A DNA stretch of 64,000 bases from an uncultured Bacteroidales bacterium. GTDB lineage: Bacteria > Bacteroidota > Bacteroidia > Bacteroidales > CAIWKO01. The notes beneath the pieces were generated by a model. It was not told the origin of the DNA. It did not search any database and saw only the letters and a program-made list of their open reading frames with translations. The stretch is taken from positions 101,852-165,851 of the forward strand of contig CAZVKJ010000002.1 in the NCBI GenBank assembly GCA_964626855.1, written 5' to 3'. The position numbers and the translations under genes were made by a program. Shown here piece after piece: positions 40,401 through 60,106 of this stretch (position 1 is its first letter; each line of letters starts with the position of its first letter).

Positions 40401-43400
40401 GAATTATTGCAATATTTATAGCAGCAACACAAGTTCTTCCAGTGGAACAATTCTTTTCAGTACAGGAACATCGGCAGGAAATGATAATAATACAATAAGC
40501 AATTGTGATATTTATCAGGGATCCAGCGTTCCTTACAATGCCATTTATTCGCTTGGAAGTGCATCATACACAAATTCCGGAAATACGATAAAAGGTAATT
40601 TAATAAGAAATTTCACTAATTATGGTATTAATATATCCTCCACCGGTAATGGCGATGGTTGGACAATCGGTGGCGCCAATGCCCCGGACGGCAATAGTAT
40701 TTATAATGAATCTGCCAGAAGTACTGCGCTGGTTAATATTTATTTTGCGGCAGGCAGTAATCATACAATAAGGAATAACAGTATTTTCCATAATGCAGCA
40801 GCAAACACCAGTACATTTACAGGGATTCAGATAGCCGGCAGTGGTAATGGTATAACCATCAGGGATAATTATATAGGCGGCACTCAGGCACAATGTGGCG
40901 GAACAGCCTTATTAAGCAGCTATTCAGGAGCAGGCGCATTTATCGGAATTACTGCTGCTGTAGGAACAACAACCGATGCAGAAATTCATAATAATACAAT
41001 AAAAAATATTACCAACTCAGGAGCAGCATCGTCGTTCACGGGTATCGCTGTTACAGCAGGTATTGCAAATATTGGTACATCAGCAGGAAATACCATTGGA
41101 GATGTTTCTATTGCAAACAGCATCTCACTTTCGGGTTCCGGCGCAACGTCGCCCATAACGATCACCGGGGCGGGTAATGGCTCTGATATAAGCAACAATA
41201 CCATTGCCGGATTTACTACTTCTTCAAACAATGCCTTTGTTGGTATCACTCTCACCGTTGGGACAACAACCGCCACATCGGTACAGGGAAACACCATAAA
41301 GGAAATTACAATGAATGGTAATGTTGCCTCGTCTTTTAAAGGAATATATGTTACTGCCGGGAAAGTAAATATTGGTGATGTATCATCAAACAATATAGGT
41401 GATGCCAGTTTAACAGATTATAGCAGTATTACGTATGCCGGTACTTTAACCTGTTATGGTATTTATAGTGCGGCATCAGCAGCCTCGGTGATTTCAAATA
41501 ATTATATTGCAAATATCTATGCAAGCTATAATTCTTCTGGCACAGCTGTAATTCTATGCGGAATATATCATGTTACCAATGCCGTAGCTTTAACCATTAC
41601 TGGCAACACTATTAAATATCTCAAATCAAACTATGGTAATACTAATGCGCTGGGCGCAACTTCATCCGTTGAAGGAATTTCTGTCGCTACTTCTGCCGCC
41701 GGCAGCACAATATCTCAAAATACTATTCATACGCTTCAAAATACTTATGCAACAGGGGCAGCAAACCATATTGCAGGAATATATGCCAATTTGGCGACAT
41801 CAGGAACAAATATAGTCAGCAAAAATTTTGTTCATAGCTTAAAATCAACAAATGCTACTACTGCCGGTAGCTTATGCGGAATCTACCTGGCCGCAGGATT
41901 ATACACCTGCGATAATAATATGATACGCCTGGGCGTGGATGATGCGGGCGCCGATATTAATAACAATTATCTGATATATGGAATCTATCAGGCAAGCGCT
42001 GCGGTTAATTCAAATATTTATTTTAATTCGGTATATATAGGCGGCAGTGCAGTTGCTCCTGCTGGTGCCATCAATACTTATGGATTATTCCGCAACAATA
42101 CGATTGCAACAAATGTGAAAAATAATATTTTCATGAATGCCCGCTCTAACAATACAGGAACGGGGACACATTATAGTATTTCTATTTCGGCAATAACCGG
42201 GTATACCGGTGATAATAATCTTTTTTATACGCCCGGAACAGGCGGAAAAGTAGGTAAAGTGAGCACGACGGATTATGCCGACCTTACAGCATGGAAATCA
42301 GGTTCAACTCAGGACGCACTCAGTGTAAGCGGGGATCCTCATTTTTTGTATCCGGCTAATGATAATACAAGTTTAGACCTTCATATTGATGCTGCTTCCG
42401 GCACACAGGTCGAAAGCGGAGGTATTGAAATATCGGGAATTACATACGATTTTGATGCCGCAGGAACACGCCCCTCGGGCGGATATCCGCTTAGCGGTCA
42501 AACAAATGGAGGTGGCAATGCTCCTGATATAGGCGCCGATGAAGGCGATTTTGTCGGGGTTGATCTTACACCTCCAATGATTTCATACACCCCATTGAGC
42601 AGTTCGGTTGTCGCTACAGGCAGATCCTTTACTGATGTGGGCATAACTGACGCTTCAGGTGTAAATATAACCAATGGTACAAAATCAAGATGTTATTATA
42701 AAAAGTCAACCGATGCCAATACATACGCCGGCAATACCAGTTCTGACGATGGATGGAAGTACGTGGAGGCCAGCGGAACCACATCTCCGTTTAGTTTCTA
42801 CATAGATTATTCTATCCTTAACGGGGGATCGGTTGTTGCTAATGATATCATACAGTATTTTGTTGTGGCACAAGACCTGGCTCCTGCCATAAACGTTGGA
42901 ATTAATTCCGGGACATTTACATCCTATCCTGCAAGTGTTGATCTTGCCTCCGGCAATTTTCCGCTGACAGGAACAATAAATCAGTATACTATATTGCCTG
43001 GCGTCAATGCTGAGTATTATGTGGGAGCATCAAGCTGCAACGGGAATTCCCCGAATTATGCGACACTTACCGGAGCCTCCGGATTCTTTGCCTTTATGAA
43101 TACATCCGGCACATCAATGGTGATCGATAAGAATATTACAGTGTATATTACTTCAGATATTACCGAAACTGGTGTTAATGCATTAAATCAATGGACTGAG
43201 GATGGCAATGGACCATATACTCTTACCATTGTTCCTTGCGATGCTACCCTGAAAACGCTTTCGGGCAGTGTTTCAAGTAATGGACTAATTCCTATAAACG
43301 GCGCCGACAGAGTTATCTTTGATGGAAGATATGCAGGTTCCGGAAAATACCTGAAATTTAAAAACACATATGCAACAGCCGGTACGGCCGCTCCGACTTT

Positions 43401-46400
43401 TAAGCTTTATAATAATTCGACCTATAATACAATCGAATATTGCTATGTGGAAGGGCAACTGCAATATAGTGATACCTACAATCCGTCGAGTGGTGTTATT
43501 ATGCTGGGCACAAGTACGGCAGGCGGTGACGGCAATAGTTATAATACAGTATCAGACTGTGATGTTTATGGGGGCGGATCATCATGGTATGCTTCCACAT
43601 TAATTTATTCCTGTGGCCTTGCCGGAACACCCAATCATGATAATGCTATTTCAAATAACAATCTTTATAATTTCTGTTATGGGGGTGGCGGAACGACAAC
43701 AAGGGCGCACGCTATTAATATTACCGCAACAGGCAACGGAAGCAACTGGACCATTTCGGGAAACAGCATTTACAATACTTTTGTTAATGGCACCAATGTA
43801 CAAAGCGCAATAACATTCCTACCCGGCTCTTCATCAACCGGAAATATTATTTCAAATAACTGGATTGGCGGCAAAGCTCCTTTATGCGGAGCTGCCGGCA
43901 CACCATGGGAAAACAGTTATGATCCATATAACACAACAGAGACTATTTTATACGGGATGCAAATAAACGTAGGAACGATTACTATTGATGGAAATAATAT
44001 AACAAACATCAAAGCTTCTTCACCTGATTATACCGGTATTCAGTTGATAAAAATTGTAGGTTCGACGGTGGCTACAATTACAAATAATGTATTTGGAAGC
44101 GGCACAAACGGAACTCCGGATAATAGCAAAATCATTCAATGTTCGGGAGGTGCAGGCACATCATATGGCCCAGGGTATATTTATGGGATCTGGAACACGA
44201 GTAACACAACTTCAATGACTACATACGACAATAATGATTTTTATTATTTGTGGCAGAGTGGTGCGGGTTATGGCGGTTCAGTACAATGCATTGTTCACCA
44301 AACGGCTGGCCCGGCGACTATTACCAACAACCAAATTAACGGTCCGCAGGCTGTGGGTAGTGCTGATTATGGCGCAGGGTATAATAGTTTTGGTATTCGT
44401 GTTGAACCTACAGCATCTAACACTGGAAATATAATCAGAAATAATCGTGTTGCAGGTCCATATCTCAATAATACAAGTGCGCTTACCTATGAATCAGCCA
44501 ACTATGGAATACGGGTGTTTGTCAGTTCATATACAGTAAGTGGAACAATTGATAATAACGTGATCTGGGATATGCGCAATGCTGACCGCGCCGGTTATAC
44601 TGAAGGAATTTATATTTATTCAACTACAGGCGGCAACGGAAACTGGGATATCTATAACAATCAGATCACTCTGAAAAACAACGGAAGCACTTCAAATTGT
44701 GTGGGACTTTATGGTATTGATATCGCATTAAATTCAGCATCAACGACCACGATAAGGCACAACACTGTTTATATTGGCGGGTCTAATGGCGGGTCTCCTG
44801 TCGCCGGGCATGATTTTAGTTCATATTGTTACCTCCGCTTGCCCAATAGTTCGGGAACGGTGGTTGGCGATGCCGTTACTGTTCAGAACAATATTTTTAT
44901 TAATTCACGTTTAGTTGGTAATGGCTATGTTGCAGGGCATTTTGCAATAGCGAACCAGGGCACGTCAAACTATGCAACCAACTGGAATGTCAGCGATAAT
45001 AATTTCCTGTTTACAAATAATGGAACATATAACAAAATAGGTTGCTGGGGTTCAACAGCTCAGGCAACATTAGCAAACTGGCGCACCGCTTCATCAAAAG
45101 ATGCCAACAGCTATACTGCCACCGTCACCACGGGAGCTTCCAATTTTGCTTCCGGATTGCTCAACCCTGATAACTCATCATACCTGTTTAATAATCCTTT
45201 ATCTGATTTACATATTTCGATCAGCGACGGACAAAGCTATCAGTTTGTTGCCGACAGGGGCACAACAACTTCTATAACTACGGACTTTGACGGAGAGTCC
45301 AGGCCGATGGATGCTGCTCCTGATTTAGGCGCTGATGAGTTTACAGCAACTTGCACTAATCCTACCTTGTCGGGAGCTTCGCAGGCCGCCGAAGTATGTG
45401 GCAGTGGACCGGCAATCATAAATTTAACGGGACTTGTAGCCAGCAGCACTGACAATGCAATAGATTATACAATTAATGGAGTGCAGCAAACACAGGTCAC
45501 CGGTATTGATGCGGACGGATCGGGTAATGCCAGTTTTACAACCACATCACTGACAACCGGAAATAACGGCCACCAACTGGTGATTACAAAAATTACAAAT
45601 GGCGCCTGTTTTACTAATTTTTCACAAAGCGTTGTATTGCAGGTTACGGCAACTCCAACATTAACGGGGGCTTCGCAAGCATCTGCCGTTTGTGGCAGCG
45701 GCACAGCAACCATAAATATGACAGGCCTTGTCGCCAGCAGTACCGGTAATGCCATCGATTATACGATTAATGGTGTGCCACAAACACAGGTGACAGGTGT
45801 AAGCGCTGATGGTTCGGGTAATGCCAGCTTTACAACAACCTCACTGACCACGGGGAATAACGGCCAGCAATTAGTAATTACTGCGATCACAAACAACAGC
45901 TGTTCTTCTAATTTTTCACAAAGTGTTGTTTTGCAGGTATCAGCATTGCCAACTTTGACAGGCGCATCTCAGTCTGCAGTGGTTTGTGGTAGTGGTACCG
46001 CCACAATTGATATGACCGGCCTGGTTGCCGGCAGTACTGGCAATGCTATAGACTATACAATAAACAGTGTTCCGCAAACCCAGGTAACGGGAGTTAATGC
46101 TGACGGATCTGGTAATGCAAGTTTTGTAACTTCGGCTTTGACTACGGGAAATAACGGCCAGCAATTGGTTATTACAAAAATCACGAATGGCACCTGCTAT
46201 ACTGATTTTACCCAGTCTGTTGTTTTGCAGGTTGAAGTTTCACCAACCTTAACCGGGGCATCTCAGGCCTCATTGGTTTGCGGCAGTGGTGAGGCTACAA
46301 TAAACATGTCGGGTCTGGTGGCCGGCAGTACGGGTAATGCTATTGATTATACGATCAACGGCGTTCCACAAACACAAATCACCGGAATTAATGCAAATGG

Positions 46401-48948
46401 ATCGGGCAATGCCAGTTTCAACACATCCTCATTAACCACGGCTAATAATGGCCAGCAATTAGTAATAACAAGAATCACCAATGGGAACTGCTATACAGAT
46501 CTCACACAGAGTGTATCGTTACAGGTAACAGCTGCTCCTACGCTGACCGGGGCATCACAGGCAACAGTGGTGTGTGGCAGTGGCTCTGCAACAATAAATC
46601 TGACCGGGATGGTTGCAAATAGTACAGGCAATGCAATTAATTATTCTATTAATGGAGTGCCACAGACACAGGTTACGGGTGTAAATGTGAATGGGTCCGG
46701 TGATGCCGGTTTTAATACCAGCACGCTTACAAACGGTAATAATGGCCAGCAATTAGTGATAACCCGTATTACGAATGGCTCATGTTATACCGATTTCACC
46801 CAGGGATTATTGCTGGGTGTTGAAGATGCACCAACATTAACAGGGGCCTCACAAGCCGCTGCAGTCTGTGGAAGTGGCTCGGCCACCATTAATCTTTCGG
46901 GTTTGGTCGCAAATAGTATAGGAAACGTAATAAATTATTCAATTAACAGTGTTCCACAAACACCTGTTATTGGTGTAAATGCCAATGGTTCTGGCAACGC
47001 TAGTTTTACCACACCATCGTTAACTACTGCCAACAACGGTCAAATTCTGCAGATTACGGGAATAACAAATGGTAATTGTACATCATCATTTTCGCAAAAT
47101 GTTATCCTGAACGTTACAACAACATATACCTGGACAGGAACAGTAAGTACGAATTGGGATGTTGACGGCAACTGGTCCTGTGGTATTGCCCCCACCAGTG
47201 TTAATGATGTTATCATCCCGGTGGTGGCGAACCTTCCTGTTGTAAGTTCAACAGGAGTTTCCGCATGCCATAATATTACTATTAATGCCAATGCATCGGT
47301 TACGGTCAGCAGTACAAAAGATTTATCTGTGTATGGCAACTGGACTAATAATGGCGTGAGTACAGTAGGAAGCGGTACGGTCATATTTACAGGAGGCTCG
47401 GCACAAACAGTCAGTGGTGTTACAAAATTTGGAAATCTTACAATAAATAATCTGAGCGGAGTAACATTATCAGGAAATACTCAATTAACAGGAGTTTTAA
47501 CGCCTACACAGGGGAATCTTGCCAGTAATGGCTACCTGACATTACTCTCTACGGCCTCACAGACAGCATTGATAGCAGGAACAGGAACCGGTAATGTTAC
47601 AGGCGATGTTACCATGCAGCGGTATATGCCCAACAAGCGAGGTTATCATTACTATTCTTCACCATTCAATGGTGCCCCCATTACGGAGTTTACAGATGAG
47701 CTCGGAACAATAATTACGGGAGATCCTTATGTTAATAATGATACAACCCATACCGTTACGCCGTTCCCCAATTTCTTCATCTATGATGAAACGCCGCCTT
47801 ATACCATGTCGATTGGATGGACAGGGGCAAGTTCCACGTTGGAAACGATGAGAGGTTATTGTATTAACTTTGGTTCGTCAACAGCCGCGATTACTACTGA
47901 TGTTACCGGTGTGGTCAATAATGGCCCGTTAAGCTATGGTGTAACAAGAACAACATCTACGCACCCATCGGCTGATGGATGGAACCTTGTTGGAAACCCC
48001 TATCCATCGCCAATTAACTGGCAAGCCTCCGGTTGGACCAAAACCAATATCAGCAACGGCATTTACTATTTTAAACCTAATGCGCAATATACCGGTACAT
48101 ACAGCTCTTTTGTCAACGGAATAGGTGTAAATGGCGGATCCGGAATTATTTCTTCAATGCAGGGCTTTTTGATCAGGGCAACAGCAAACGGAACACTGGG
48201 TGTGACTAATTCCGTCAGGGTAAATAATCTGACCACAACTTTCTATAAGGCACAGCAGGTTATTCCCTTATTAAGACTTAAAGGATATCCGTCAGCCAAT
48301 CAGTCATACGGTGATGAAACCGTAATCTATTTTGATTCCCTTGCAACATCGTGGTTTGATAATGATATGGATGCCTACAAGATGATGAACAATGATCCAA
48401 ACTATCCGAATATCTTTACAAAGGATAGTTCCAATAGTACATTATCAATAGATGCATTACCTCCACTAACAAATATGGATGTTGTCATTCCCCTGGGATA
48501 TGTAACAAAGACCAGCGGAAGCTTTAAAATCAAGGCTACAGAAATTTTGAACTTTGACCCGACAGTACACATTTACCTCGAAGACAATAGTACCTCTACA
48601 AGCCAGGATTTGACCATAAATCCGGAATACACCTTTAATATTACTGCTAATGAACCGCTTTACAGGTTTTTCATCAGGTTTTCGCCAACTATTATTACGG
48701 AAATTCCTGAAAACACAAGTACATATATTGATGCATGGTCATCAGGAAAGGACATCTACATAAGCTGTAATACCTCAAAACAGCAACAGCTTGAGGTGTC
48801 GGTATATGATATGCTTGGCAGGAAAATCATTTACCAGCAGCAGGATGGAAGCGGAATGTTGCATTATACACTGGAAAAGCCCGGATGTTATGTGGTGGAT
48901 GTTGTAAGCGGAAATAAAACATATCAGAAAAAAGTTATCATAATGTAA
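37411..48948 (+). CDS. giant (3845 codons) parallel-beta-helix repeat adhesin-like protein with T9SS C-terminal sorting domain; likely continuation of 35248..37389
   Basis: It has no signal peptide of its own. Dozens of PbH1-like units are present (ISGNSIYN, ISNNYIGG, ITGNTISNI, IHNNTIKNI). There are three modules ending in DFDG..R....GADE, six 98-aa tandem repeats, and a T9SS tail LEVSVYDMLGRKI...KPGCYVVDVVSGNKTYQKKVIIM. Confidence 0.85.
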   Translation: MTFRPELGAGMLVTSGDPGSGNALIKLTGVGNATGYIIFDGRAGGTGSTVGWTIRNTRTTSIVGPAFQFTNGCAYDILQYCQLESYNTTATSGTVYLYNSSTGPANNHLTIQNCNIGPYSTYYPVNGICAYGYSTTYPNSYISVLDNNIYNFLPGSTAVGSAVCVTGTSTNTNYGDNWTISGNSIYNSVTQVNGYYVYPIYFIPGTGSTNNTISNNYIGGQSALCGGTGSPWVCKSTSSSGITVPAFAGMFIKAGSATITGNTISNIQINNTNQNGHAFGIDVDGTSGSSGFIITGNTIGNPSPSGSAVGFQNTGAAANGGSVCGIVNQAAGNITIGAAGSGNGNIIANLSNVGSSVNTPVAGIVTTTGVNSIVNNTIFNLTAATLNTATQVNSIPFDGCVVGILSSTAVTGQLNINDNTIYNLISSGTSAAATRAVGINVNGIPPYALANGSHSVDGNKIYNISTTNTNTSAIIAGIRLSGSSSSSAVNFTISNNMVMLGYRGDGTTITGSAQISGIFDNSSGYSGNPTSYDNNIRVWHNTVYIGGTGVTGGAVNTYAFYRYNTNSSPKNVEKIYNNIFVNDRSYSVSGTGFNAGIGLDNNLTYSPNLLSTDYNLVYGTGVQYRFGYITSTSYATKAAWVAANATFDPNSQTTNPQLIDPTSTSAPDLHVNTSVVTPVEGAGTGSYTMTYDFDGDTRASLTPTDIVADAGDFQGAPNISYTALANTSSLSNAPHTATITSANGINVTSGTKPRIYFKRTYEANTFVDNTNATDGWKYTEATNSSSPFTFLIDYSLLYNSGSIPVAAGDYIQYFVVAQDNNGTPTIGINSGVFNATPSSVDDYANIFPLGSPINQYWILPSQGSYTIGVTGRPTNNYTSLTRNDGFFAGMDDPNTLISGDITMSITADISIEDGANGLNQWTESPPNNVFTVTVQPDASANRNVYGTYAGGLFRLNGCERVIFDGSNGTTSRYLTFYNSTAAQPTFVFINDATGNTLNYCNIYSSNTSSSSGTILFSTGTSAGNDNNTISNCDIYQGSSVPYNAIYSLGSASYTNSGNTIKGNLIRNFTNYGINISSTGNGDGWTIGGANAPDGNSIYNESARSTALVNIYFAAGSNHTIRNNSIFHNAAANTSTFTGIQIAGSGNGITIRDNYIGGTQAQCGGTALLSSYSGAGAFIGITAAVGTTTDAEIHNNTIKNITNSGAASSFTGIAVTAGIANIGTSAGNTIGDVSIANSISLSGSGATSPITITGAGNGSDISNNTIAGFTTSSNNAFVGITLTVGTTTATSVQGNTIKEITMNGNVASSFKGIYVTAGKVNIGDVSSNNIGDASLTDYSSITYAGTLTCYGIYSAASAASVISNNYIANIYASYNSSGTAVILCGIYHVTNAVALTITGNTIKYLKSNYGNTNALGATSSVEGISVATSAAGSTISQNTIHTLQNTYATGAANHIAGIYANLATSGTNIVSKNFVHSLKSTNATTAGSLCGIYLAAGLYTCDNNMIRLGVDDAGADINNNYLIYGIYQASAAVNSNIYFNSVYIGGSAVAPAGAINTYGLFRNNTIATNVKNNIFMNARSNNTGTGTHYSISISAITGYTGDNNLFYTPGTGGKVGKVSTTDYADLTAWKSGSTQDALSVSGDPHFLYPANDNTSLDLHIDAASGTQVESGGIEISGITYDFDAAGTRPSGGYPLSGQTNGGGNAPDIGADEGDFVGVDLTPPMISYTPLSSSVVATGRSFTDVGITDASGVNITNGTKSRCYYKKSTDANTYAGNTSSDDGWKYVEASGTTSPFSFYIDYSILNGGSVVANDIIQYFVVAQDLAPAINVGINSGTFTSYPASVDLASGNFPLTGTINQYTILPGVNAEYYVGASSCNGNSPNYATLTGASGFFAFMNTSGTSMVIDKNITVYITSDITETGVNALNQWTEDGNGPYTLTIVPCDATLKTLSGSVSSNGLIPINGADRVIFDGRYAGSGKYLKFKNTYATAGTAAPTFKLYNNSTYNTIEYCYVEGQLQYSDTYNPSSGVIMLGTSTAGGDGNSYNTVSDCDVYGGGSSWYASTLIYSCGLAGTPNHDNAISNNNLYNFCYGGGGTTTRAHAINITATGNGSNWTISGNSIYNTFVNGTNVQSAITFLPGSSSTGNIISNNWIGGKAPLCGAAGTPWENSYDPYNTTETILYGMQINVGTITIDGNNITNIKASSPDYTGIQLIKIVGSTVATITNNVFGSGTNGTPDNSKIIQCSGGAGTSYGPGYIYGIWNTSNTTSMTTYDNNDFYYLWQSGAGYGGSVQCIVHQTAGPATITNNQINGPQAVGSADYGAGYNSFGIRVEPTASNTGNIIRNNRVAGPYLNNTSALTYESANYGIRVFVSSYTVSGTIDNNVIWDMRNADRAGYTEGIYIYSTTGGNGNWDIYNNQITLKNNGSTSNCVGLYGIDIALNSASTTTIRHNTVYIGGSNGGSPVAGHDFSSYCYLRLPNSSGTVVGDAVTVQNNIFINSRLVGNGYVAGHFAIANQGTSNYATNWNVSDNNFLFTNNGTYNKIGCWGSTAQATLANWRTASSKDANSYTATVTTGASNFASGLLNPDNSSYLFNNPLSDLHISISDGQSYQFVADRGTTTSITTDFDGESRPMDAAPDLGADEFTATCTNPTLSGASQAAEVCGSGPAIINLTGLVASSTDNAIDYTINGVQQTQVTGIDADGSGNASFTTTSLTTGNNGHQLVITKITNGACFTNFSQSVVLQVTATPTLTGASQASAVCGSGTATINMTGLVASSTGNAIDYTINGVPQTQVTGVSADGSGNASFTTTSLTTGNNGQQLVITAITNNSCSSNFSQSVVLQVSALPTLTGASQSAVVCGSGTATIDMTGLVAGSTGNAIDYTINSVPQTQVTGVNADGSGNASFVTSALTTGNNGQQLVITKITNGTCYTDFTQSVVLQVEVSPTLTGASQASLVCGSGEATINMSGLVAGSTGNAIDYTINGVPQTQITGINANGSGNASFNTSSLTTANNGQQLVITRITNGNCYTDLTQSVSLQVTAAPTLTGASQATVVCGSGSATINLTGMVANSTGNAINYSINGVPQTQVTGVNVNGSGDAGFNTSTLTNGNNGQQLVITRITNGSCYTDFTQGLLLGVEDAPTLTGASQAAAVCGSGSATINLSGLVANSIGNVINYSINSVPQTPVIGVNANGSGNASFTTPSLTTANNGQILQITGITNGNCTSSFSQNVILNVTTTYTWTGTVSTNWDVDGNWSCGIAPTSVNDVIIPVVANLPVVSSTGVSACHNITINANASVTVSSTKDLSVYGNWTNNGVSTVGSGTVIFTGGSAQTVSGVTKFGNLTINNLSGVTLSGNTQLTGVLTPTQGNLASNGYLTLLSTASQTALIAGTGTGNVTGDVTMQRYMPNKRGYHYYSSPFNGAPITEFTDELGTIITGDPYVNNDTTHTVTPFPNFFIYDETPPYTMSIGWTGASSTLETMRGYCINFGSSTAAITTDVTGVVNNGPLSYGVTRTTSTHPSADGWNLVGNPYPSPINWQASGWTKTNISNGIYYFKPNAQYTGTYSSFVNGIGVNGGSGIISSMQGFLIRATANGTLGVTNSVRVNNLTTTFYKAQQVIPLLRLKGYPSANQSYGDETVIYFDSLATSWFDNDMDAYKMMNNDPNYPNIFTKDSSNSTLSIDALPPLTNMDVVIPLGYVTKTSGSFKIKATEILNFDPTVHIYLEDNSTSTSQDLTINPEYTFNITANEPLYRFFIRFSPTIITEIPENTSTYIDAWSSGKDIYISCNTSKQQQLEVSVYDMLGRKIIYQQQDGSGMLHYTLEKPGCYVVDVVSGNKTYQKKVIIM
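45361..47124 (+). repeat. six tandem 294-nt (98-aa) coding repeats inside the giant gene
   Basis: PTL(T/S)GASQ codons recur at 45361, 45655, 45949, 46243, 46537 and 46831. Each unit reads PTLTGASQ..VCGSG.ATIN.TGLVA.STGNAIDYTING VPQTQVTGV.A.GSGNASF.T..LTTGNNGQQLVIT.ITNG.C...F.QSV.LQV. Confidence 0.95.
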
Positions 48949-48970
48949 GATTATCATAAAGGAGGACTAT

Positions 48971-49204
48971 ATGAGAAACAGAATCATTTATCGAACATTG
49001 CCGGAAATTAATTTAAGAAGGATCAGCATTAAGGCTATTTTAATAAATGGCTTTTTATTGTTCCCGATATTCATTAATGAGGCGCTGGCACAGGTTCCGC
49101 CACCTCAACCAAGTGAGGAATTTGTGCCTATCAAAGGCTTGGGCATACTGGCCATCGCCGGTATTGTTTATGGCGTATGGAAGCTGATTCGTAAAAAGAA
49201 GTAG
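48971..49204 (+). CDS. 77-aa pre-protein: signal peptide, short Pro/Glu spacer, PEP-CTERM-style tail (motif, TM helix, KKK)
   Basis: A perfect AAGGAGG (48959-48965) lies 5 nt upstream of the ATG. The signal peptide reads ...FLLFPIFINEALA/Q. The mature part is only QVPPPQPSEEF plus VPIKGLGILAIAGIVYGVWKLIRKKK. It starts 22 nt after the giant gene and ends 47 nt before the exosortase-like gene. Confidence 0.5.
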   Translation: MRNRIIYRTLPEINLRRISIKAILINGFLLFPIFINEALAQVPPPQPSEEFVPIKGLGILAIAGIVYGVWKLIRKKK

Positions 49205-49251
49205 CTATAATGTGATTTATAATCAACACTGAATATCAAGGATACTTTCAA

Positions 49252-49839
49252 ATGCTGGCACTGACGTCTAAAATAAAAAATTTTTCGCGTTCAAATAAGA
49301 TTCCCGTTTTCTTTATTGAACTACTGTTGTTTTATCTTTTATGGAATTTTTTAGACGGATACCTGATTGCACACAGCCATTTATTTGACAGGATTTGGAT
49401 GGGTATGTACCATATACTTTTAAAGAGTGTGATGTTTATGAGTGTACTGATCACCAAAATCTTTACGGATGTACAAATCACAACCACTTACAGGCATATT
49501 ATACTTGGGGATTTTGGAAGTATAGGGATTTCAAATTACTGCCTTTGTGCAAATCTTATGTTTTTATTCGGGGCCTTTATTATTGCATATCCCGGAAAAT
49601 GGAAGATAAAGTTATGGTTTATACCCCTTGGCATTGTAATAATACATTTGTTGAATACATTTAGAATTTCAGCCTTATGCCTGTTGAAAATTTATTCGCC
49701 GGAAACGCTGGAAATAAATCATCATTATATTTTTAATATTATTCTTTACGCCTTTGTTTTTATTATGTGGATGATTTGGATTACCCGTTTATCGGGTGAG
49801 GGAATATTAAAAAGGAAACTCTCAGAAGGAAAAGAATAA
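49252..49839 (+). CDS. xrtF: exosortase family protein, XrtF-like (195 aa)
   Basis: Small polytopic protein with the ordered exosortase/archaeosortase triad context. The Cys is in GISNYCLCANLMFLFGAFIIAYPG. The Asn/Arg motif is IIHLLNTFRISALCLL. The His is in SPETLEINHHYIFNIILYAFVF. Size and phylum context fit the XrtF class. The call is from memory of the family pattern, not a search. Confidence 0.62.
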   Translation: MLALTSKIKNFSRSNKIPVFFIELLLFYLLWNFLDGYLIAHSHLFDRIWMGMYHILLKSVMFMSVLITKIFTDVQITTTYRHIILGDFGSIGISNYCLCANLMFLFGAFIIAYPGKWKIKLWFIPLGIVIIHLLNTFRISALCLLKIYSPETLEINHHYIFNIILYAFVFIMWMIWITRLSGEGILKRKLSEGKE

Positions 49840-49865
49840 CAAAAAAAATGGGAATTTTATAATAG

Positions 49866-49891
49866 AAAAGGCTGCCCCAGGGCAGCCTTTT
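49866..49891. terminator. bidirectional rho-independent terminator between convergent genes
   Basis: aaaaggctgcc-ccag-ggcagcctttt forms an 11-bp stem including the A/T arms, so it is usable on both strands. It lies between the gene ends at 49839 and 49913. Confidence 0.75.
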
Positions 49892-49912
49892 CTATTATAT
49901 TATGGAGTCGAA

Positions 49913-52900
49913 TCAATGCACAAGTTTTAATACCATGCAGTTTGATTTTTCAGCCCCGAGAAAATCAAGGCGGAAGGTATATATACCCGCCGGCAGGTCT
50001 TTTGGTGAGAAAGCAATAGTATGCGTTCCTCCGGTTTGATTTTCATTTTGAAGTTCGCTTACAAGTTCTCCTGTTGCATTATAAATATTTATCGTTACCA
50101 TTCCGTTTTCCGGGATGTTGTAAGTTAATTTTACATTGTCATCAAATGGATTGGGGTAAGCTGTAAAGTCAAAACCATTTTCGCTGTTACTGGCTTGAAA
50201 GAATATTTTGGGCATAAGCAGGTATGTTCCATCGTTTTCTTCACCAAACCGGTTTGCGGCAACACCTGTACCAGATAGCGAAAAATTGATCTCGCCTGGC
50301 TCAGGATCTTTTAATGTGCGGAATCCGAGAACAAGAATCTGATCATTAGGGTTCACATCAAAATGGTGTGTAGTGGCATAAACAACCCGTATAACTCCAT
50401 TCTCATCAGTAACAAGTAAATCATTATCACTTGTCATTATTTCATCCAGCGAAGGATTGATTTTTATTTCCGGGCTGTTTTTACCTGTACCACTAACATA
50501 AGCAGAAATAAGCCTGAAATCTGATTCGGGATATTTAGCTTCAAGGCCGAGTGCCGAAAAATCATCTATTTTTGAACTTATCCTCAATGGTACTTCAAAA
50601 TATGAAGGATTGGTGATCACCTGGTATTCATCAGATGAAACAATAAAATCCTGTGGCAATGATTTAAGCCCGCTCCAGTTTGTGGTAGAATCGCGGTATT
50701 TGGTGCTTGAAGCATTAAAATCACCATAGCTGATCGTTTTAAGCGTGATGCTTAAATTAGAACCGGCAACAGTTACCATTGTATCCAGAGCTGCCCAGTT
50801 GCCTTTTGGGAAATTTTTCGTAACATTATATGGTGCTCCGATTTTCGCCTTTATTCTGGCAATATCAACGGCATTAATAGACGTGTTATTATCAACACTT
50901 CCTGCATTTTTATATTTTGCAGAGAAATTTCTGGACGGATCCACCATGGTGTCTACACCAATATAATATTTCAACAGCGCTATATCAACAGCGTTGACGT
51001 CGTTACACCATTGCATGGTATCTGCTGCATATTTATCATATGAAAGGATATAATTTCCGTCGGCAACATTAGTAAACTGATAATTCCCCTGTAAATCACT
51101 GGTATCTCTTGCCACTTCTGTTCCCGCGGGATAGTTTTTCAGGATGACCACTACATTATCGATATCATAAATAACAGCATTGTAGGTAGGTGGATTTGGC
51201 ACCGTGCCCACATTGGCTTTACCGGTATAACGTGTTTTTCCGCTGATGACATGGCCACTGCCTCCCACGTAAACCGTAACCACATCCGTGGCTGTGCAAT
51301 TGTTATTACTAACGGTCAGGGTGTAGGTTGTTGTTATTGATGGTGATGCTGTTGGCTGGGCAATGGCCGGATTATTTAATCCCGAAGTGGGTTGCCAGCT
51401 AATGGTTCCGGGCCCGTTATCGGGATCGCCAATAGAAACAGGGGCGCCTGTATATGTTGCAGATGTCCCCGCTTCGGCTATGGGAACCGCATAAACCTGC
51501 ACGTCCTTTATCGTTGCCGAAGATGCTGCACAATCATAACCATTGGAATAGTTTACTGTTACTGTTTGTAATCCAACGGTGGTCCAGGATACAGTAATAG
51601 TGTTAGTGCCTGTTCCCGCTGTGATATTTCCTCCGGCAGAAACATTCCAGGTATATCCCGTCATGGAACTTTCTGTGGTGTATGTTACGCCTGTGGCGCC
51701 TGCACACACGGAGGGAAGCCCTGTAATTGTTGGAACGGGCCTGGGGTTTACTGTAATAGTATATGCTGACGGTGTCCCTGTGCAGTTGTTTACTGTTGGT
51801 GTTACCGTAATGGTAGCAATGATGGGCGAAGTTCCTGTATTAGTTGCAGTAAACGAAGGAATATTTCCGGTGCCGCTGAAAGCCAGTCCCAATGCCGAGT
51901 TTGAGTTAGTCCACGTATAGGTGCCTCCTGCCGGGGTGCTTAAAAAGTTTGTAGCAGTGACAGTGCCGCCACTACAAACAGTTATATTCGATGGAACGGT
52001 TACGGTTGGTGTCGGATTAACGGTAATTACAAAATAAACCGGTGATCCCTGGCAGCCATTCAATGTTGGTGTGACAAGAATCGTAGCTAAAATTGGTGAT
52101 GTGCCCGTATTATGGGCTGTAAAAGAAGCAATGCTTCCGGTACCGCTCGCGGCCAGGCCTATGGTAGTATTGGAATTGGTCCATGAAAATGTTGCGCCCG
52201 CAGGTGTACTGGTGAAGTTTACCGCCGGGACAATCCCGTTATTACAAACAGTTATGTTGGATGGGGCCGTGACTACCGGGGTAGGTTTTACAGTAATTGT
52301 ATACGAGGAAGGTGTCCCCACACAACTGTTAACTGTGGGTGTAACGGTAATGGTGGCAGATATTGAGGCGGTACCCGTATTAGTTGCTGTGAAAGAGGGA
52401 ATATTTCCGCTACCACTTGAAGTCAAGCCGATGGCTGTATTTGAATTTGTCCAGGAAAACGTGCCGCCGGCCGGAGTGCTGGTAAAGGATGTGGCAGACA
52501 CCGTGCTTCCATTACAAACGCTGATGTTTGAAGGAACAGTTACCGTTGGTGTGGGTTTGACAGTAATCGTATACGAGGAAGAGGTTCCCACACAACTATT
52601 CACTGTCGGAGTAACAGTTAGGGTTGCTGTAATATTTGAAGTTCCTGAATTGGTTGCGGTAAATGAAGGAACATTGCCTGTGCCGCTTGATGTCAAACCA
52701 ATTGCAGTATTTGAATTCGTCCAGGAAAATGTGCCGCCGGCCGGAGTGCTGGTAAAGGATGTGGCAGACACCATGCCTCCATTACAAACGCTGATGTTTG
52801 AAGGAACAGTTACCGTTGGTGTGGGTTTGACAGTAATCGTATACGAGGAAGAGGTTCCCACACAACTATTCACTGTCGGAGTAACAGTTAGGGTTGCTGT

Positions 52901-55900
52901 AATATTTGAAGTTCCTGAATTGGTTGCGGTAAATGAAGGAACATTGCCTGTGCCGCTTGATGTCAAACCAATTGCAGTATTTGAGTTCGTCCAGGAAAAT
53001 GTGCCGCCGGCCGGGGTGCTGGTAAAGGATGTAGCAGACACCGTGCCTCCATTACAAACGCTGATGTTTGAAGGAACAGTTACCGTAGGCGTCGGGTTTA
53101 CCGTGATAGTGTATGAAGAAGGGGATCCTGCACAACCGGATAAAGTCGGGGTGACAGCAATCGTTGCAGTAATGGGTGATGTTCCAGTGTTATGTGCAGT
53201 AAAGGACGCAATGTTTCCCGTGCCGCTGGCAGCAAGCCCGATGGCGGTGTTTGTATTTGTCCATGTGTAGGTAGCACCGGCAGGTGTGCTGGTAAAATTT
53301 GTCGCCGCAACGGTGCCGTTATTACATACTGCAAAATTTGATGGCACTGTTACCGTCGGTGTTACATTAACAGTGACAGGATAATTTGCAGATACAGTGC
53401 CATTGCCGCATGAATTCGTTCCCATTACAGTGAGGTTCCCTGATGTAGCCGATGATGAGAAATTAATTGTTACAGCATTAGTTGTCCCTGAAATGGTTGC
53501 CCCAGTACCGGAATAAGCCCATGTATAATTTGTAGCTCCTGTTATTGCAGGAACAGAGTAGGAAACATTGTTTTGTCCCTGGCAAACAGCAGTCGATCCT
53601 GTAATAGTTCCGGCTGCGCCGGGAAGTGTGCAAGCCGTGCACACAATAGGAGATACATATATGGCAGAATAAAGCTGGTTGCTTGATAATGCAGGAAAAG
53701 AATTCCATGTTGTTCCGTATTTTACAAACCCGGAATTGACCAGGCTTGTTCTGGATACTGCCTGATAAACGGCAAATGTATCAGCAGGGGTGTTATAGTA
53801 TACTTTATAGCCGACATATACATCGGAACCCGTAAAAGTAACAGGGGTGTCGAACTGAACATAGTTAATTGCATTTGGTGTTAATGCGCTCAGATAAATA
53901 TCTTTGGATCCCAGAACGGTTCCAGGCGTGGAACCTCCGCCCTGGTATACGTTGAATGTTATTTTATGATTTCCTCCTGTACCACCGCTATATGCTTTTG
54001 CAACGCCAACTTCCAGCCCGGTTATATTCTGGGTGGTAACACCTGTATAATATTCTGCAAATTCGCTGAATGAATAATAATTATGTCCTGTCCAGGATCC
54101 CCATTGATTGGTAAAGCCGTACAGCGCAAGATTGTCAGATTGAAGCAGGTTGGTTAATGTATCGCAGGTAGATCCTCCTGACCCTGTAGTGGTAGCATTA
54201 CCTGTAAGTGCCGGTGTCAGGTAACAGTAACCCGTGCTGGTATATTCAAATATTGCATAATGATATGCGATTCCGGATAATAAACCGGTCACATTTACAG
54301 AAGTTCCGGTACCGGAATAAACAACATAGTTTCCGGTTCCGAGTTGTGTGCCGATGCCGAATGTTGCATTGGCAGTATATGATGTTCCGTTTACCGGAGA
54401 TGCATTCACTGCGCTGCCTGCTCTTGCCACCACAATGACACCGCCTGTTCCGTTACCGCGCGTCCATCCAACAGTCATTGAATTATTGGTTATGGATGAT
54501 GAAGTGAAAGAAGTGGCCTGGGTGGTGGGCGGAGTGCATGAAGAGCAGGTTGAAATTCCTGCTAATGTTGTCGCCCCTGTATTTGTCGGGTCCAGCCAGT
54601 CCTTTAATCTTTTATCTGCCGTGGTGCCGTTTTGATCCCAGTGATAATATACTTTACCATAATAGTCCGGCGAATTAGGGGAAGTACAATACGACGTACC
54701 ACCTGTCAAAGTGCCGACAATTTTTCCGGTGCTGTTAAATATCGGCGATCCCGATGAACCACCTTCGGTAACACCATGGCCGTTAGTTGTTGCAGCCCAA
54801 TATACAAGCCAATGAGTGCCTGTTCCTCCAACGTTTACAGATGATAATGCAGTTGTGTATGTCGAAATTTTCATGATATCACCGTCAGGATGATGAATTC
54901 CGACTCCGCTTGAGCTTGCTGTATTATTGCGGTCCCATCCGTTATAATAGACATTATATGAGCTTGAGATGGCGCTGTTTATCTGAACAAGGCAGAAGTC
55001 GGAACCATCGTCGTTTGAACCATAAGTATCATGGGCTTTGAGCGTACAGCCTGTTTTTGTGAGCGTCCCGGATGAAGAAGTACCTGAGCATGTGGATGCC
55101 TCATAATGAAAATAAAAAATCCAGGAGTTATAATCAGAAGATGATGAATAAGATCCATTGTAATAGTGGCAATGATCGGCCAGTAGTACATATGGAGTGC
55201 AGTCCTGGCTTGTATTGTTCACCAATGAACCGGTACAGTTAAACCAATTTGACCCGTTTTTGATGTCTATTTTGCATACACCTTTTTTCTCATCCTGCCA
55301 GTTGTCTCCTTCGGGTGAACATATAACATTCACTTCGCATGTCCCGGCACTTTTATTAACGCTGCCTTCTTCTGCACGATAGAAAAAGTAAAGTTCAGTA
55401 ATGTGCAACAAGGGTGATTCTTGTATATTATCCGGAATAAACATTTCGAGCGTAATTTCATCACCCTGTAATTTTTCGTTGGCGAAAAAATTATTGCTTG
55501 TATTGTTTATCGATGTATAAGCCCCAAGAATTCCGGTTTTGTCTTTATTATACAGGAAGAGTTTTACTCCTTCAGGCAAATGAAAGTAAGAATATCCAAA
55601 ACCTATAGCTTTTGCCCCCTCCGACTTTACTGTTAATCGCCAGATCCTTGCATGCTGATCAGGGATATCCGTCCATGTCCCGGAGTTTGTGAGACTAAAA
55701 TCAGCAGGTAGAGTGACCCCAATCCTGTATGGCTCGCTTTTCGATGCCCGGTCATGATCTTCGGCAGCAAGCTGAACCAGATCCGGCGGTTGTACCATGA
55801 CTAAATCAATATTATTTGAAATGTTTTTCATTCCAAAACTGGGTGGGATTCCACCTTGGCTATCTTGTGAATACCCTACTGTTATTCCGTAAATGAACAG

Positions 55901-55933
55901 AAAAACAATAAATAACAGTTTTTTCATAATCAT
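49913..55933 (-). CDS. 2006-aa T9SS-secreted lysyl-endopeptidase-like S1 serine protease fused to FN3, PKD/Ig-like repeats, dockerin-like and cohesin-like modules
   Basis: Signal peptide, then a pro-region. The catalytic triad context is of Achromobacter-protease-I type: YVLLADHCHY (His), SDFCLVQIN (Asp) and GGSSGSPIF (Ser). Then an FN3-like segment (MTVGWTRGNGTGGVIVVAR...YHYAIFEY), six 90-aa repeats, the same C-terminal cassette as 29848..31200, and a T9SS tail. Confidence 0.85.
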   Translation of the reverse strand: MIMKKLLFIVFLFIYGITVGYSQDSQGGIPPSFGMKNISNNIDLVMVQPPDLVQLAAEDHDRASKSEPYRIGVTLPADFSLTNSGTWTDIPDQHARIWRLTVKSEGAKAIGFGYSYFHLPEGVKLFLYNKDKTGILGAYTSINNTSNNFFANEKLQGDEITLEMFIPDNIQESPLLHITELYFFYRAEEGSVNKSAGTCEVNVICSPEGDNWQDEKKGVCKIDIKNGSNWFNCTGSLVNNTSQDCTPYVLLADHCHYYNGSYSSSSDYNSWIFYFHYEASTCSGTSSSGTLTKTGCTLKAHDTYGSNDDGSDFCLVQINSAISSSYNVYYNGWDRNNTASSSGVGIHHPDGDIMKISTYTTALSSVNVGGTGTHWLVYWAATTNGHGVTEGGSSGSPIFNSTGKIVGTLTGGTSYCTSPNSPDYYGKVYYHWDQNGTTADKRLKDWLDPTNTGATTLAGISTCSSCTPPTTQATSFTSSSITNNSMTVGWTRGNGTGGVIVVARAGSAVNASPVNGTSYTANATFGIGTQLGTGNYVVYSGTGTSVNVTGLLSGIAYHYAIFEYTSTGYCYLTPALTGNATTTGSGGSTCDTLTNLLQSDNLALYGFTNQWGSWTGHNYYSFSEFAEYYTGVTTQNITGLEVGVAKAYSGGTGGNHKITFNVYQGGGSTPGTVLGSKDIYLSALTPNAINYVQFDTPVTFTGSDVYVGYKVYYNTPADTFAVYQAVSRTSLVNSGFVKYGTTWNSFPALSSNQLYSAIYVSPIVCTACTLPGAAGTITGSTAVCQGQNNVSYSVPAITGATNYTWAYSGTGATISGTTNAVTINFSSSATSGNLTVMGTNSCGNGTVSANYPVTVNVTPTVTVPSNFAVCNNGTVAATNFTSTPAGATYTWTNTNTAIGLAASGTGNIASFTAHNTGTSPITATIAVTPTLSGCAGSPSSYTITVNPTPTVTVPSNISVCNGGTVSATSFTSTPAGGTFSWTNSNTAIGLTSSGTGNVPSFTATNSGTSNITATLTVTPTVNSCVGTSSSYTITVKPTPTVTVPSNISVCNGGMVSATSFTSTPAGGTFSWTNSNTAIGLTSSGTGNVPSFTATNSGTSNITATLTVTPTVNSCVGTSSSYTITVKPTPTVTVPSNISVCNGSTVSATSFTSTPAGGTFSWTNSNTAIGLTSSGSGNIPSFTATNTGTASISATITVTPTVNSCVGTPSSYTITVKPTPVVTAPSNITVCNNGIVPAVNFTSTPAGATFSWTNSNTTIGLAASGTGSIASFTAHNTGTSPILATILVTPTLNGCQGSPVYFVITVNPTPTVTVPSNITVCSGGTVTATNFLSTPAGGTYTWTNSNSALGLAFSGTGNIPSFTATNTGTSPIIATITVTPTVNNCTGTPSAYTITVNPRPVPTITGLPSVCAGATGVTYTTESSMTGYTWNVSAGGNITAGTGTNTITVSWTTVGLQTVTVNYSNGYDCAASSATIKDVQVYAVPIAEAGTSATYTGAPVSIGDPDNGPGTISWQPTSGLNNPAIAQPTASPSITTTYTLTVSNNNCTATDVVTVYVGGSGHVISGKTRYTGKANVGTVPNPPTYNAVIYDIDNVVVILKNYPAGTEVARDTSDLQGNYQFTNVADGNYILSYDKYAADTMQWCNDVNAVDIALLKYYIGVDTMVDPSRNFSAKYKNAGSVDNNTSINAVDIARIKAKIGAPYNVTKNFPKGNWAALDTMVTVAGSNLSITLKTISYGDFNASSTKYRDSTTNWSGLKSLPQDFIVSSDEYQVITNPSYFEVPLRISSKIDDFSALGLEAKYPESDFRLISAYVSGTGKNSPEIKINPSLDEIMTSDNDLLVTDENGVIRVVYATTHHFDVNPNDQILVLGFRTLKDPEPGEINFSLSGTGVAANRFGEENDGTYLLMPKIFFQASNSENGFDFTAYPNPFDDNVKLTYNIPENGMVTINIYNATGELVSELQNENQTGGTHTIAFSPKDLPAGIYTFRLDFLGAEKSNCMVLKLVH
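51740..53359 (-). repeat. six tandem 270-nt (90-aa) PKD/Ig-like coding repeats; units 2 and 3 nearly identical at the DNA level
   Basis: attacaaac-type anchors recur at 51971, 52241, 52511, 52781, 53051 and 53321. Only about 4 mismatches were seen in the aligned stretches of 52550-52819 versus 52820-53089. The unit reads PT(P)TVTVPSNISVCNGGTVSATSFTSTPAGGTFSWTNSNTAIGL.SSGTGN.PSFTATN.GTS.ITAT.TVTPTVNSC.GT.SSYTITVK. Confidence 0.95.
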
Positions 55934-59035: not shown

Positions 59036-60058
59036 TTACTGCTTGATAAAACTTCTGGAAACGGAGGATTTGCCTTCACCCAGCCTGATTATATATAAAC
59101 CGGAAGCAAAATTTCGGGTATCTACGATGGTCTGTTGTTTTACAACACCGCTATAAACAATTTTTCCGCAATTATTGTATATGCTGAAGTCAACAGGCAG
59201 GTTATTGTTTTTGGATAAAACCAGTTCTCCTTTTACAGGATTGGGTTTTATTTCGATATTGGGGGCAATACTTTCATCAGAAACCGATGTAATCAAAATG
59301 CTGATAACATTGGAGGCTTCTGATGCACAACCGAAATTGTCATAAGCGACGACATAATAATTTCCTGATGTTATTGGAGTATAGGATGATGATGTTGCTC
59401 CGGCAACAGGCCCGTTGTCATCGTACCACTGATTGCCTGAAGGTACAGAAGAGAATAGTGTGTTGCCATTTTGATTAATTACCGGTGTAATCGTCGGGAC
59501 ATATATAGATCCTGTGATATTTTGCAAATATGTTTCTCCGGAAAGTGTCTGAAAAGAATTGTCATATGTTAAACCGGGAGGGTTATAGTCTGGGGTTCGC
59601 GAGGGTGAAGGATCATTATTTTCAAAAAGCCTTACACTGGCAGGGCAAATATTTGAGGGTAAACTAAATGTAAAAAGAAGAATATCAGAACCTAATACCA
59701 GCGGCTCATTAAAGGGGGCTCCGGTTGTTGCAAATTTGTGATAATCTTTTTGCCCGTCAAATGTCAATGTGTTGAAATATGGTGAATTATCATTCCAGCC
59801 TGCATTTGAGGGATTGATGGATGTGCACGATATAACTGAATTGGGGGCAGCCTCGGGTAGAACAATGCAAAAACCCGACGGACCAACAAAATTATTCCAT
59901 CCGTTGGAAGAAAGCGCCCCGCCAACATGTAAGTGAGCTTCGTACATGTTTATGGCAGGATTATAACGGAGTTCATATGTTGACTCCATTCGGTTTTGTG
60001 CCTTTAAATAAGACATAACAGCAAAAATGCTGAAAATTAAAAAAATATAAGTTTTCAT
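59036..60058 (-). CDS. 340-aa secreted protein of unknown function with T9SS C-terminal sorting domain
   Basis: The start is set at MKTYIFLIFSIFAVMSYLKAQ (signal peptide). The longer track ORF adds 40 non-signal residues. The tail reads IEIKPNPVKGELVL...FSIYNNCGKIVY...ASGLYIIRL. Confidence 0.75.
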   Translation of the reverse strand: MKTYIFLIFSIFAVMSYLKAQNRMESTYELRYNPAINMYEAHLHVGGALSSNGWNNFVGPSGFCIVLPEAAPNSVISCTSINPSNAGWNDNSPYFNTLTFDGQKDYHKFATTGAPFNEPLVLGSDILLFTFSLPSNICPASVRLFENNDPSPSRTPDYNPPGLTYDNSFQTLSGETYLQNITGSIYVPTITPVINQNGNTLFSSVPSGNQWYDDNGPVAGATSSSYTPITSGNYYVVAYDNFGCASEASNVISILITSVSDESIAPNIEIKPNPVKGELVLSKNNNLPVDFSIYNNCGKIVYSGVVKQQTIVDTRNFASGLYIIRLGEGKSSVSRSFIKQ

Positions 60059-60106
60059 AAAATACAGCATTAATATTTTAAAAAAAAATTCTTTATACTT
60101 ATTATA

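Follow-up and report, generated by a model that had tools for sequence, protein, structure and literature searches.

What an exosortase gene and the gene of a 77-amino acid (aa) mini-protein are doing directly behind the gene of a giant type IX secretion system (T9SS) adhesin was the question raised by a stretch of DNA from an uncultured Bacteroidales bacterium (assembly GCA_964626855.1, contig CAZVKJ010000002.1, positions 101,852–165,851; its 64,000 nucleotides (nt) are referred to below as the window, and all coordinates without a locus number are those of the window). A previous interpretation made from the letters alone (the sequence-only reading) had assigned the enzyme to the XrtF class and had suggested the mini-protein as its possible dedicated substrate. 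The present analysis pointed to a different class: we consider it likely that the locus represents a two-gene sorting pair of the PID-CTERM/XrtX type, probably co-transcribed with the preceding gene of a giant type A T9SS adhesin. Judged by profile matches, the system itself is already catalogued as NCBIfam/Pfam models, and the window pair is a divergent and rare two-gene form of it.

The exosortase gene (49252..49839, + strand) codes for a 195-aa protein, and both small open reading frames (ORFs), with their coordinates and peptide strings, were found as the sequence-only reading had given them. The strings NYCLCANLMF, HLLNTFRISAL and EINHHYIFN were all present in the protein, and the catalytic-type residues C97 (49540–49542; the first Cys of NYCLC), N135, R138 (49663–49665) and H157 (49720–49722) were invariant in an alignment of 36 homologs, which bears out the claimed order of Cys, Asn-x-x-Arg and His. 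A Kyte-Doolittle scan detected five hydrophobic 19-residue segments, and the protein is therefore predicted to be polytopic. The exosortase/archaeosortase signature TIGR04178 was passed with 49.1 bits (cutoff 23), and by alignment, hydropathy and profile matches together the protein is an exosortase-family enzyme. Its best specific model was exosortase X (XrtX; NF046081) with 124.4 bits (cutoff 170), followed by XrtY with 63.4 bits, while XrtF (TIGR04128) ranked only third with 62.3 bits (cutoff 90; E 6e-17) and covered residues 92–181 only, so the label 'XrtF-like' was abandoned. XrtX was also the best model for all 36 homologs, which were taken from a collection of 5.8 billion proteins.

Within the XrtX range the window enzyme occupied a marginal position. 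True XrtX proteins scored at 183–212 bits, and the window protein grouped with sub-threshold relatives at 100–142 bits. In a neighbor-joining tree it did not fall within the main XrtX radiation; its clade, which was separate, also held the relative P0003 (at 55% identity) and the P0002 type (at 51%). An exhaustive phmmer search against 1.84 billion cluster representatives returned just two at E <= 1e-30, with 52–53% identity, indicating that the lineage is rare. The P0002-type genes were located inside a glycan-biosynthesis cluster with genes for GT2, GtrA, radical SAM/SPASM, methyltransferase and NeuB proteins. One of the P0002-type contigs shares its metagenome of origin with the window and had a very similar tetranucleotide profile (r ~0.945), and the P0002-type exosortase could be a paralog in the organism of the window; the same type of comparison did not show the L093 contig (see below) and the P0002-type contigs to belong to one organism. 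No solved structure related to the window exosortase was found, and a Pfam scan produced nothing useful for either small protein, the Pfam names PF28310 and DUF8202 used below being precomputed labels.

The mini-protein is encoded at 48971..49204 (+ strand) and starts with a predicted signal peptide (aa 1–40, 48971..49090; hydropathy and AxA rule), the predicted signal peptidase I site being ALA/Q, with Ala at positions -3 and -1 of the signal-peptide end NEALA/Q. According to the alignment, the A/Q junction is common to other mini-proteins. It is followed by a Pro-rich mature linker of 11 residues, QVPPPQPSEEF (aa 41–51, 49091..49123; alignment), and by a PID-CTERM-like sorting tail (49124..49204, including the stop codon; profile matches), which consists of VPIKG, the Gly/Ala/Ile-rich transmembrane (TM) helix LGILAIAGIVYGVW and KLIRKKK at the extreme C-terminus. 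The signal peptide and the tripartite tail, both proposed in the sequence-only reading, were supported by hydropathy, by the alignment and by a tail hidden Markov model (HMM). This HMM, which was built from other loci only with the window sequence excluded, was run on the 521 ORFs of at least 30 aa in the window and selected the mini-ORF as its sole match (E 9e-6, against 1.2 for the next best), so that the resemblance is not due to chance. The PID-CTERM model NF046080 matched aa 56–75 with 25.7 bits (cutoff 26; E 7e-6). The family-model check recommended earlier consequently gave a mixed outcome: the general exosortase signature was passed, while XrtF and, narrowly, PID-CTERM stayed below their cutoffs.

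A search with the single mini-protein sequence found only itself and no other homolog. With a family profile at least 3,432 clusters were retrieved: the top 120 were all 69–103 aa long and all carried the precomputed label PF28310, and one retrieved cluster bears the NCBI name 'PID-CTERM protein-sorting domain-containing protein'. The window mini-protein could be aligned block for block with 21 other mini-proteins, reaching 40% identity with that of locus L050. A further comparison was with locus L093, where a 63-aa ORF, 39 nt after the closest relative of the giant adhesin, ends with ...EVLAQAPPPAPSGNSVPINGLGILAALGIGYGIKKLRGKKK and aligns gap-free to residues 15–77 of the window mini-protein (35 of 63 positions identical). 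The proportions of nonsynonymous and synonymous differences between these two ORFs (pN 0.30, pS 0.73) gave a dN/dS of ~0.14, and the differences were distributed over codon positions 1/2/3 as 17/21/39; for comparison, pN and pS between the C-termini of the two adhesins were 0.22 and 0.79. Because of this value, the 77-aa ORF is considered a real gene under purifying selection. The identical mini-ORF/exosortase pair was present on 6 contigs from several samples.

Bacteroidota generally do not use Shine-Dalgarno sites. A lineage-specific AAGGAGG (48959..48965, + strand) is located 5 nt before the ATG of the mini-ORF and was the sole strong site of this type among 33 window genes, just as the sequence-only reading had noticed. 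Since no strong site was present upstream of 47 of 50 other mini-ORFs, nor at the L093 ortholog, it was dropped as a candidate family feature.

The pairing of mini-protein and exosortase was assessed in 80 fetched genome loci encoding exosortase relatives (designated by L numbers), in 73 of which the exosortase ORF could be delimited. In 59 of the 80 loci the tail HMM detected a mini-ORF of 60–110 aa immediately before the exosortase gene, and in 51 of the 73 delimited loci the same strand carried, upstream, a 40–160-aa ORF whose tail was of the P-[IV]-[DN] type. The spacing from the mini-ORF end to the exosortase gene ranged from a 56-nt overlap to ~330 nt and was mostly below 100 nt. The mini-proteins were built on a common plan: a signal peptide ending with ...A/Q was followed by a Pro-rich linker and [VI]P[IV]DGG, then by a helix rich in Gly and Ala, and finally by a Lys-rich end. 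In P0003, the relative closest to the window exosortase, an 87-aa gene with the precomputed label PF28310 was likewise located 70 nt upstream. Across Bacteroidota, mini-proteins of this type are thus the conserved neighbors on the upstream side of XrtX genes. An exosortase with its own mini-substrate, as postulated in the sequence-only reading, is supported by this synteny and by the selection on the mini-ORF, but it is not a novel arrangement: the trio NF046081, NF046080 and NF046082, with PF28310, had already been catalogued. In most canonical PID-CTERM mini-proteins of the loci L013–L090 a conserved C-W-P-P-P-C pair stood right before P-[IV]-D (for example, L027 5664–5891 and L051 5779–5994); it was missing from the window mini-protein and from those of L017, L036, L050, L053, L054, L060, L070 and L073. 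Twin periplasmic cysteines are functionally important in SprF, a carrier of the gliding/T9SS machinery (PMC12635249).

Several observations weigh against placing the window pair in this system. Apart from the two sub-cutoff scores, the motif of the mini-protein is P-I-K and not P-[IV]-D, so that the acidic signature residue is lost, with one Gly fewer (PIK-G vs. PID-GG). The third component of the system was missing as well. In canonical loci, the end of xrtX is adjoined or overlapped by a 155–175-aa gene, which matches NF046082, the 'XrtX-associated membrane protein' (170 bits in a Hymenobacter example, sub-threshold in others). An HMM made from 40 of these proteins found the gene in 64 of the 80 XrtX loci, whereas the whole 64-kb window gave no match. 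The window therefore holds only two genes of a system that is catalogued with three. The sequence-only reading had already reported the absence of a partner membrane-protein gene; this holds for the XrtX-associated protein in the whole window, but the partner that had been expected, that of XrtF, belongs to the wrong class. Furthermore, no mini-ORF was detected within 6 kb of the P0002-type exosortases (L007/L011/L012), and at seven loci (L093, L148, L157, L159, L161, L163 and L171) a mini-ORF followed an adhesin gene without an exosortase in the examined flanks, indicating that adjacency to the exosortase is not obligatory; no gene was consistently conserved downstream of these exosortase-less mini-ORFs. 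The adhesin gene in front of the window pair may also be interrupted by a stop codon, and we know of no PID-CTERM/XrtX member that has been studied experimentally.

The PID-CTERM cutoff was passed by 7 of 10 sampled mini-proteins, the other three, located beside true XrtX genes, giving 18 bits or no match; since the partners of true XrtX extend from no match or 18 bits up to 52.5 bits, the 25.7 bits of the window mini-protein are within the family range. The corresponding motif is PIN (PIN-G) in the L093 ortholog and P-V-N in some true PID-CTERM members. Sub-threshold XrtX-like enzymes in L050 and L036/L069 were accompanied by mini-proteins which passed the cutoff, and the associated membrane protein was likewise undetected by the HMM in the basal sub-threshold clades L011/12, L028/42/59/87, L036/53/58/69 and L050. 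In one of these partner-less clades (L036, L053 and L058) the mini-proteins scored above the cutoff and had a fatty-acid hydroxylase gene upstream; a convergent RluD-like gene was located downstream in L036, L053, L058 and L069, a context different from the exopolysaccharide (EPS) and adhesin contexts described below.

The organization of the window locus agreed with the earlier description in all details which could be compared. The gaps of 22 nt between the giant ORF and the mini-ORF, 47 nt between the mini-ORF and the exosortase gene and 73 nt between the latter and a convergent gene (2006 aa) were exact, and the supposed shared bidirectional terminator probably corresponds to a 19-bp G+C-rich hairpin with A- and T-run flanks at 49858..49899, between the convergent genes (-31.4 kcal/mol, z -5.25). 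An operon of the giant, the mini-ORF and the exosortase gene, also suggested before, is plausible considering the short gaps, the lack of the promoter motif TAnnTTTG within 48300–49260 and the position of the strong hairpin only after the exosortase gene. Three consecutive - strand genes further downstream (49913..55933, 56172..58730 and 59036..60178) all have a Por_Secre_tail in the precomputed annotation, making the region 49913–60178 unusually rich in T9SS cargo.

The giant ORF (37411..48948, + strand; 3845 aa as called) was recognized as a type A T9SS cargo/adhesin by TIGR04183 at its extreme C-terminus (33.7 bits, cutoff 23, passed), and the Pfam domain Por_Secre_tail (PF18962) gave 23.9 bits (cutoff 27) on aa 3781–3844. 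As called, it has no signal peptide: one is present only if the ORF is joined to a 713-aa ORF with a Sec signal peptide (35248..37389, + strand, same frame), the probable true N-terminal part of the adhesin gene. The two are parted by a single in-frame TAG (37387–37389; '...PINIY-stop-YSSDVYKVTFRPELGAG...'). The two ORFs probably make up a single adhesin gene of ~4,566 codons that contains an in-frame stop, the TAG being one of three things: a real nonsense mutation, a site of readthrough or an assembly error.

Beyond its ~75-aa sorting domain, the last ~600 residues of the giant proved homologous to proteins encoded upstream of XrtX-locus mini-ORFs (BLASTP, E 1e-13 to 1e-35). These are 600–1,065 aa long, end 2–42 nt before the mini-ORF and also pass TIGR04183. 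The shared part was delimited, by BLASTP, tblastn and profile, as a C-terminal module of ~510 aa (giant aa 3250–3760; 47158..48690, + strand). When the module without the sorting domain was searched by tblastn against ~1 Mb of the fetched loci, nearly all matches lay in the gene that immediately precedes mini-ORF and xrt (15 loci), with two weaker ones added by BLASTP; the full module was not present in the other T9SS proteins of the window. A profile of the module family with the window sequence first, run against the PDB sequences, matched RemZ (8gl8_D, residues 702–1027 of 1114, E 2.5e-22) and RemA (8gl6_D, residues 896–1350 of 1436, E 7e-22), while the window module sequence alone found no match there. 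With the L171 DUF8202 protein it gave E 4e-36, and the module probably corresponds to Pfam DUF8202, a label which comes from the precomputed match on this L171 relative. RemA has been linked to polysaccharide. In Flavobacterium johnsoniae, RemZ and RemA both belong to the type A substrates of the T9SS, RemA being an adhesin for gliding (PMC10994853).

Accordingly, ~17 of the 80 XrtX loci had, directly upstream, the gene of a RemA-like type A T9SS protein sharing ~500 aa of this module. The reciprocal test with the 80 closest module relatives from metagenomes gave a different picture: an exosortase was present downstream of the module gene in just one of them, so a general association of module genes with exosortases was rejected; the link runs in one direction and applies to a subset. 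For the functional tie to the T9SS cargo proposed in the sequence-only reading, the recurrent synteny thus gives partial support, the reciprocal test being mostly negative. A mini-ORF followed the module gene in 11 of the 80 (nine directly, two 0.5–0.8 kb further on), among them L093, the closest relative of the giant (70% identity over the best module segment and 63% over the last 500 residues), and was lacking in 69; the closest module paralog, L091 (68%), had none.

A second recurrent neighbor was a Wzz/GNVR/AAA_31 (Wzc-like) gene of ~790–825 aa, which is divergent from the mini-ORF at a distance of 50–200 nt in ~15 loci (L015, L021, L022, L025, L031, L037, L038, L040, L041, L047, L081, L083, L084, L086 and L090) and was also found at L172 and L173; the Pfam domains were verified for L021 only, and the L173 label is precomputed. 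The Wzc-like loci border capsule/EPS clusters, including NusG/UpxY-like and ABC-transporter genes. Four loci were additionally sampled from the mini-protein side, and three of them had the order divergent Wzc-like gene, mini-ORF, xrtX, partner gene and serine hydroxymethyltransferase (SHMT) gene, at the edge of a capsule/EPS cluster. The ~424-aa gene after the XrtX cassette, which had been considered as a system component, is this SHMT gene and a lineage-level synteny neighbor. At L171 (1945–6602 of a 3.0-Mb contig), a DUF8202/G8 T9SS protein gene, the mini-ORF, a 72-nt gap and the SHMT gene followed each other: xrtX and its partner were absent from their slot, while the mini-ORF was intact. 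The mini-protein gene is thereby found in the company of XrtX genes in most loci, of RemA-like type A T9SS adhesin genes in a subset and, third, of Wzc-like genes.

Loci such as L171 lend some strength to the idea that the main role of the mini-protein is that of an accessory to RemA/DUF8202-class type A T9SS adhesins, for instance as an inner-membrane escort or an anchor precursor, with the link to the exosortase being secondary or dispensable and the enzyme gene a chance neighbor in the window. A mini-ORF stays behind the adhesin gene without an adjacent exosortase in the L093 ortholog, L148, L157, L159, L161 and L163, at L171 xrtX and partner are missing from a conserved pre-SHMT slot, and type B T9SS adhesin genes provide an example of adhesin genes followed by that of a dedicated carrier (PMC12618676). 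Nevertheless, ~42 of the 59 mini-ORFs in the XrtX loci had no adhesin gene upstream but xrtX immediately downstream, 69 of the 80 module genes had no mini-ORF, and the tail has the layout of an exosortase sorting signal; exosortases may also be encoded elsewhere in the genomes in question, of which the flanks were examined. We regard an accessory of this kind as improbable. Complete decay of the locus is a more drastic proposal, according to which a partner-less exosortase, a drifting motif and an adhesin with an in-frame stop are remnants, none of them functional: it would account for the sub-threshold scores, the lack of the XrtX-associated protein, the change from PID to PIK and the TAG in the probable adhesin gene. 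It is very unlikely, however, in view of the intact catalytic-type residues, the purifying selection on the mini-ORF and the occurrence of the identical pair in several samples, and because other partner-less XrtX-like clades (L050 and L036/53/58/69) keep mini-proteins which pass the cutoff and the relative P0003 keeps the pair.

The original assignment to XrtF, with an enzyme of this class that has acquired the missing XrtF substrate or reveals it here, had in its favor that the XrtF model does match and that XrtF substrates are unknown (bioRxiv 10.1101/2024.12.02.626408; PMC10936215), as the sequence-only reading had correctly stated. It seems highly improbable now: the score, below the cutoff and confined to part of the protein, is half that of XrtX, which was the best model for every homolog, the tail matches PID-CTERM, the partner of XrtX, and no ORF for an exosortase F-associated small membrane protein was found in the flanks, TIGR04127 not having been run over the whole window. 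Hardly credible is the last alternative, a 77-aa chance ORF that is no gene at all. Although the ORF is short and a single-sequence search matched only itself, it has a 63-aa ortholog at the same position in L093 with a low dN/dS, is the sole tail-HMM match in the window and belongs to a family of at least 3,432 clusters.

For the PID-CTERM/XrtX pair, the gene order and tail make it most likely that the mini-protein is the substrate of the adjoining exosortase. Cleavage and transfer by the enzyme were inferred by analogy only, since no paper was found on PID-CTERM/XrtX; the models are PEP-CTERM/exosortase, for which the knowledge comes from Haft 2006 and 2012 to the extent to which they are cited in PMC10936215, and PGF-CTERM/archaeosortase A. 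In such a scheme, the mini-protein would leave the cytoplasm through Sec and lose its signal peptide to signal peptidase I at ALA/Q, whereby the N-terminal Gln of the mature form might be converted to pyroglutamate. The C-terminal helix would hold it in the inner membrane with the Lys-rich end in the cytoplasm. Cys97 of the exosortase would then attack at or next to P-I-K on the outer face of the membrane and remove the helix, and the remaining peptide of ~13–15 residues, expected to read (pyro)Glu-VPPPQPSEEFVP... without the helix, would be passed to an acceptor, for instance a lipid or a glycan on the surface. Given the tiny mature part, the product would be expected to be a modified peptide and not a protein cargo. 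A role in the display of cell-surface adhesin or polysaccharide appears most likely from the gene neighborhoods, since the cassettes adjoin RemA-like T9SS adhesin and Wzc-type export genes.

The closest known system, PID-CTERM/XrtX (NF046080, NF046081, NF046082; PF28310), provided the best-scoring model for both window proteins and has the same order of mini-protein and exosortase on one strand with short gaps, the same mini-protein layout (signal peptide A/Q, Pro-rich linker, [VI]-P-[IV]-x-G, Gly/Ala-rich helix and Lys-rich end) and, in a subset, the RemA-like T9SS protein upstream. The window pair deviates by scores under the cutoffs (124.4/170 and 25.7/26), by PIK-G instead of PID-GG, by the lack of the XrtX-associated membrane protein, by an enzyme in a separate rare clade and, from most PID-CTERM members, by the lack of the CWPPPC pair, which several true members lack as well. 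The XrtF system (TIGR04128; F. johnsoniae Fjoh_1448/1449) resembles it in that its exosortase, also from Bacteroidota, is short, comparable in size and equipped with the same catalytic-type residues, but the window has no XrtF-associated protein and does have a cognate tail-bearing mini-protein. In F. johnsoniae, the only experimental case known to us, XrtF and its partner are required for surface colonization and biofilm formation, and the phenotypes of mutants without xrtF or the partner gene matched in profile those of porU and porZ mutants, which lack T9SS attachment proteins (PMC10936215); by analogy, this phenotype may serve as an indirect precedent for a link between exosortase and T9SS.

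With PEP-CTERM/exosortase (EpsH/XrtA) and PGF-CTERM/archaeosortase A the locus shares a tripartite C-terminal signal, a polytopic Cys/Arg/His enzyme and the genomic association with polysaccharide export genes; both are the source of the proposed tail removal and transfer. In contrast to these systems, which usually have many sizeable cargos per genome, the window has a single cognate substrate with a mature part of ~13–15 residues. A precedent for a very small dedicated target is XrtJ with its small PExPT-CTERM protein (TIGR04200, a whole-protein model of 57 profile positions), which appeared as a weak match in the mini-protein profile scan; exosortase class, motif and taxonomic range are different, and the likeness is limited to the generic tail layout. 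The type B T9SS adhesins with PorP/SprF-like carriers (PMC12618676) likewise combine a large adhesin gene with a following small gene of a dedicated partner, but the window adhesin has a type A C-terminal domain and its partner is a 77-aa mini-protein of inner-membrane type and not an outer-membrane beta-barrel. No relevant paper turned up under the names PID-CTERM, XrtX or exosortase X, and none of the top-ranked papers for exosortase, T9SS and Bacteroidota mentioned an exosortase. The linkage of XrtX with RemA-like adhesin and Wzc-type genes is apparently unreported.

We know of no Bacteroidota exosortase with a defined substrate or product, and the function of these enzymes becomes directly testable with the PID-CTERM/XrtX system, in which a single enzyme and its tiny candidate substrate, encoded next to each other, offer the simplest case, with the window pair as the minimal two-gene form. 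Both window genes, being just under the curated cutoffs, would receive a generic annotation only. More far-reaching, and rather doubtful at present, is the idea that PID-CTERM mini-proteins, processed by XrtX-type enzymes, serve RemA/DUF8202-class type A T9SS adhesins as dedicated factors of surface display, in which a short lipid- or glycan-linked Pro-rich peptide would act as a tether or attachment acceptor of the adhesin, or as a tether of adhesin-bound polysaccharide exported by Wzc. If true, inner-membrane C-terminal sorting would be coupled to the outer-membrane T9SS, which would give the Bacteroidota exosortases their first defined role and help to explain how some type A adhesins are retained on the cell.

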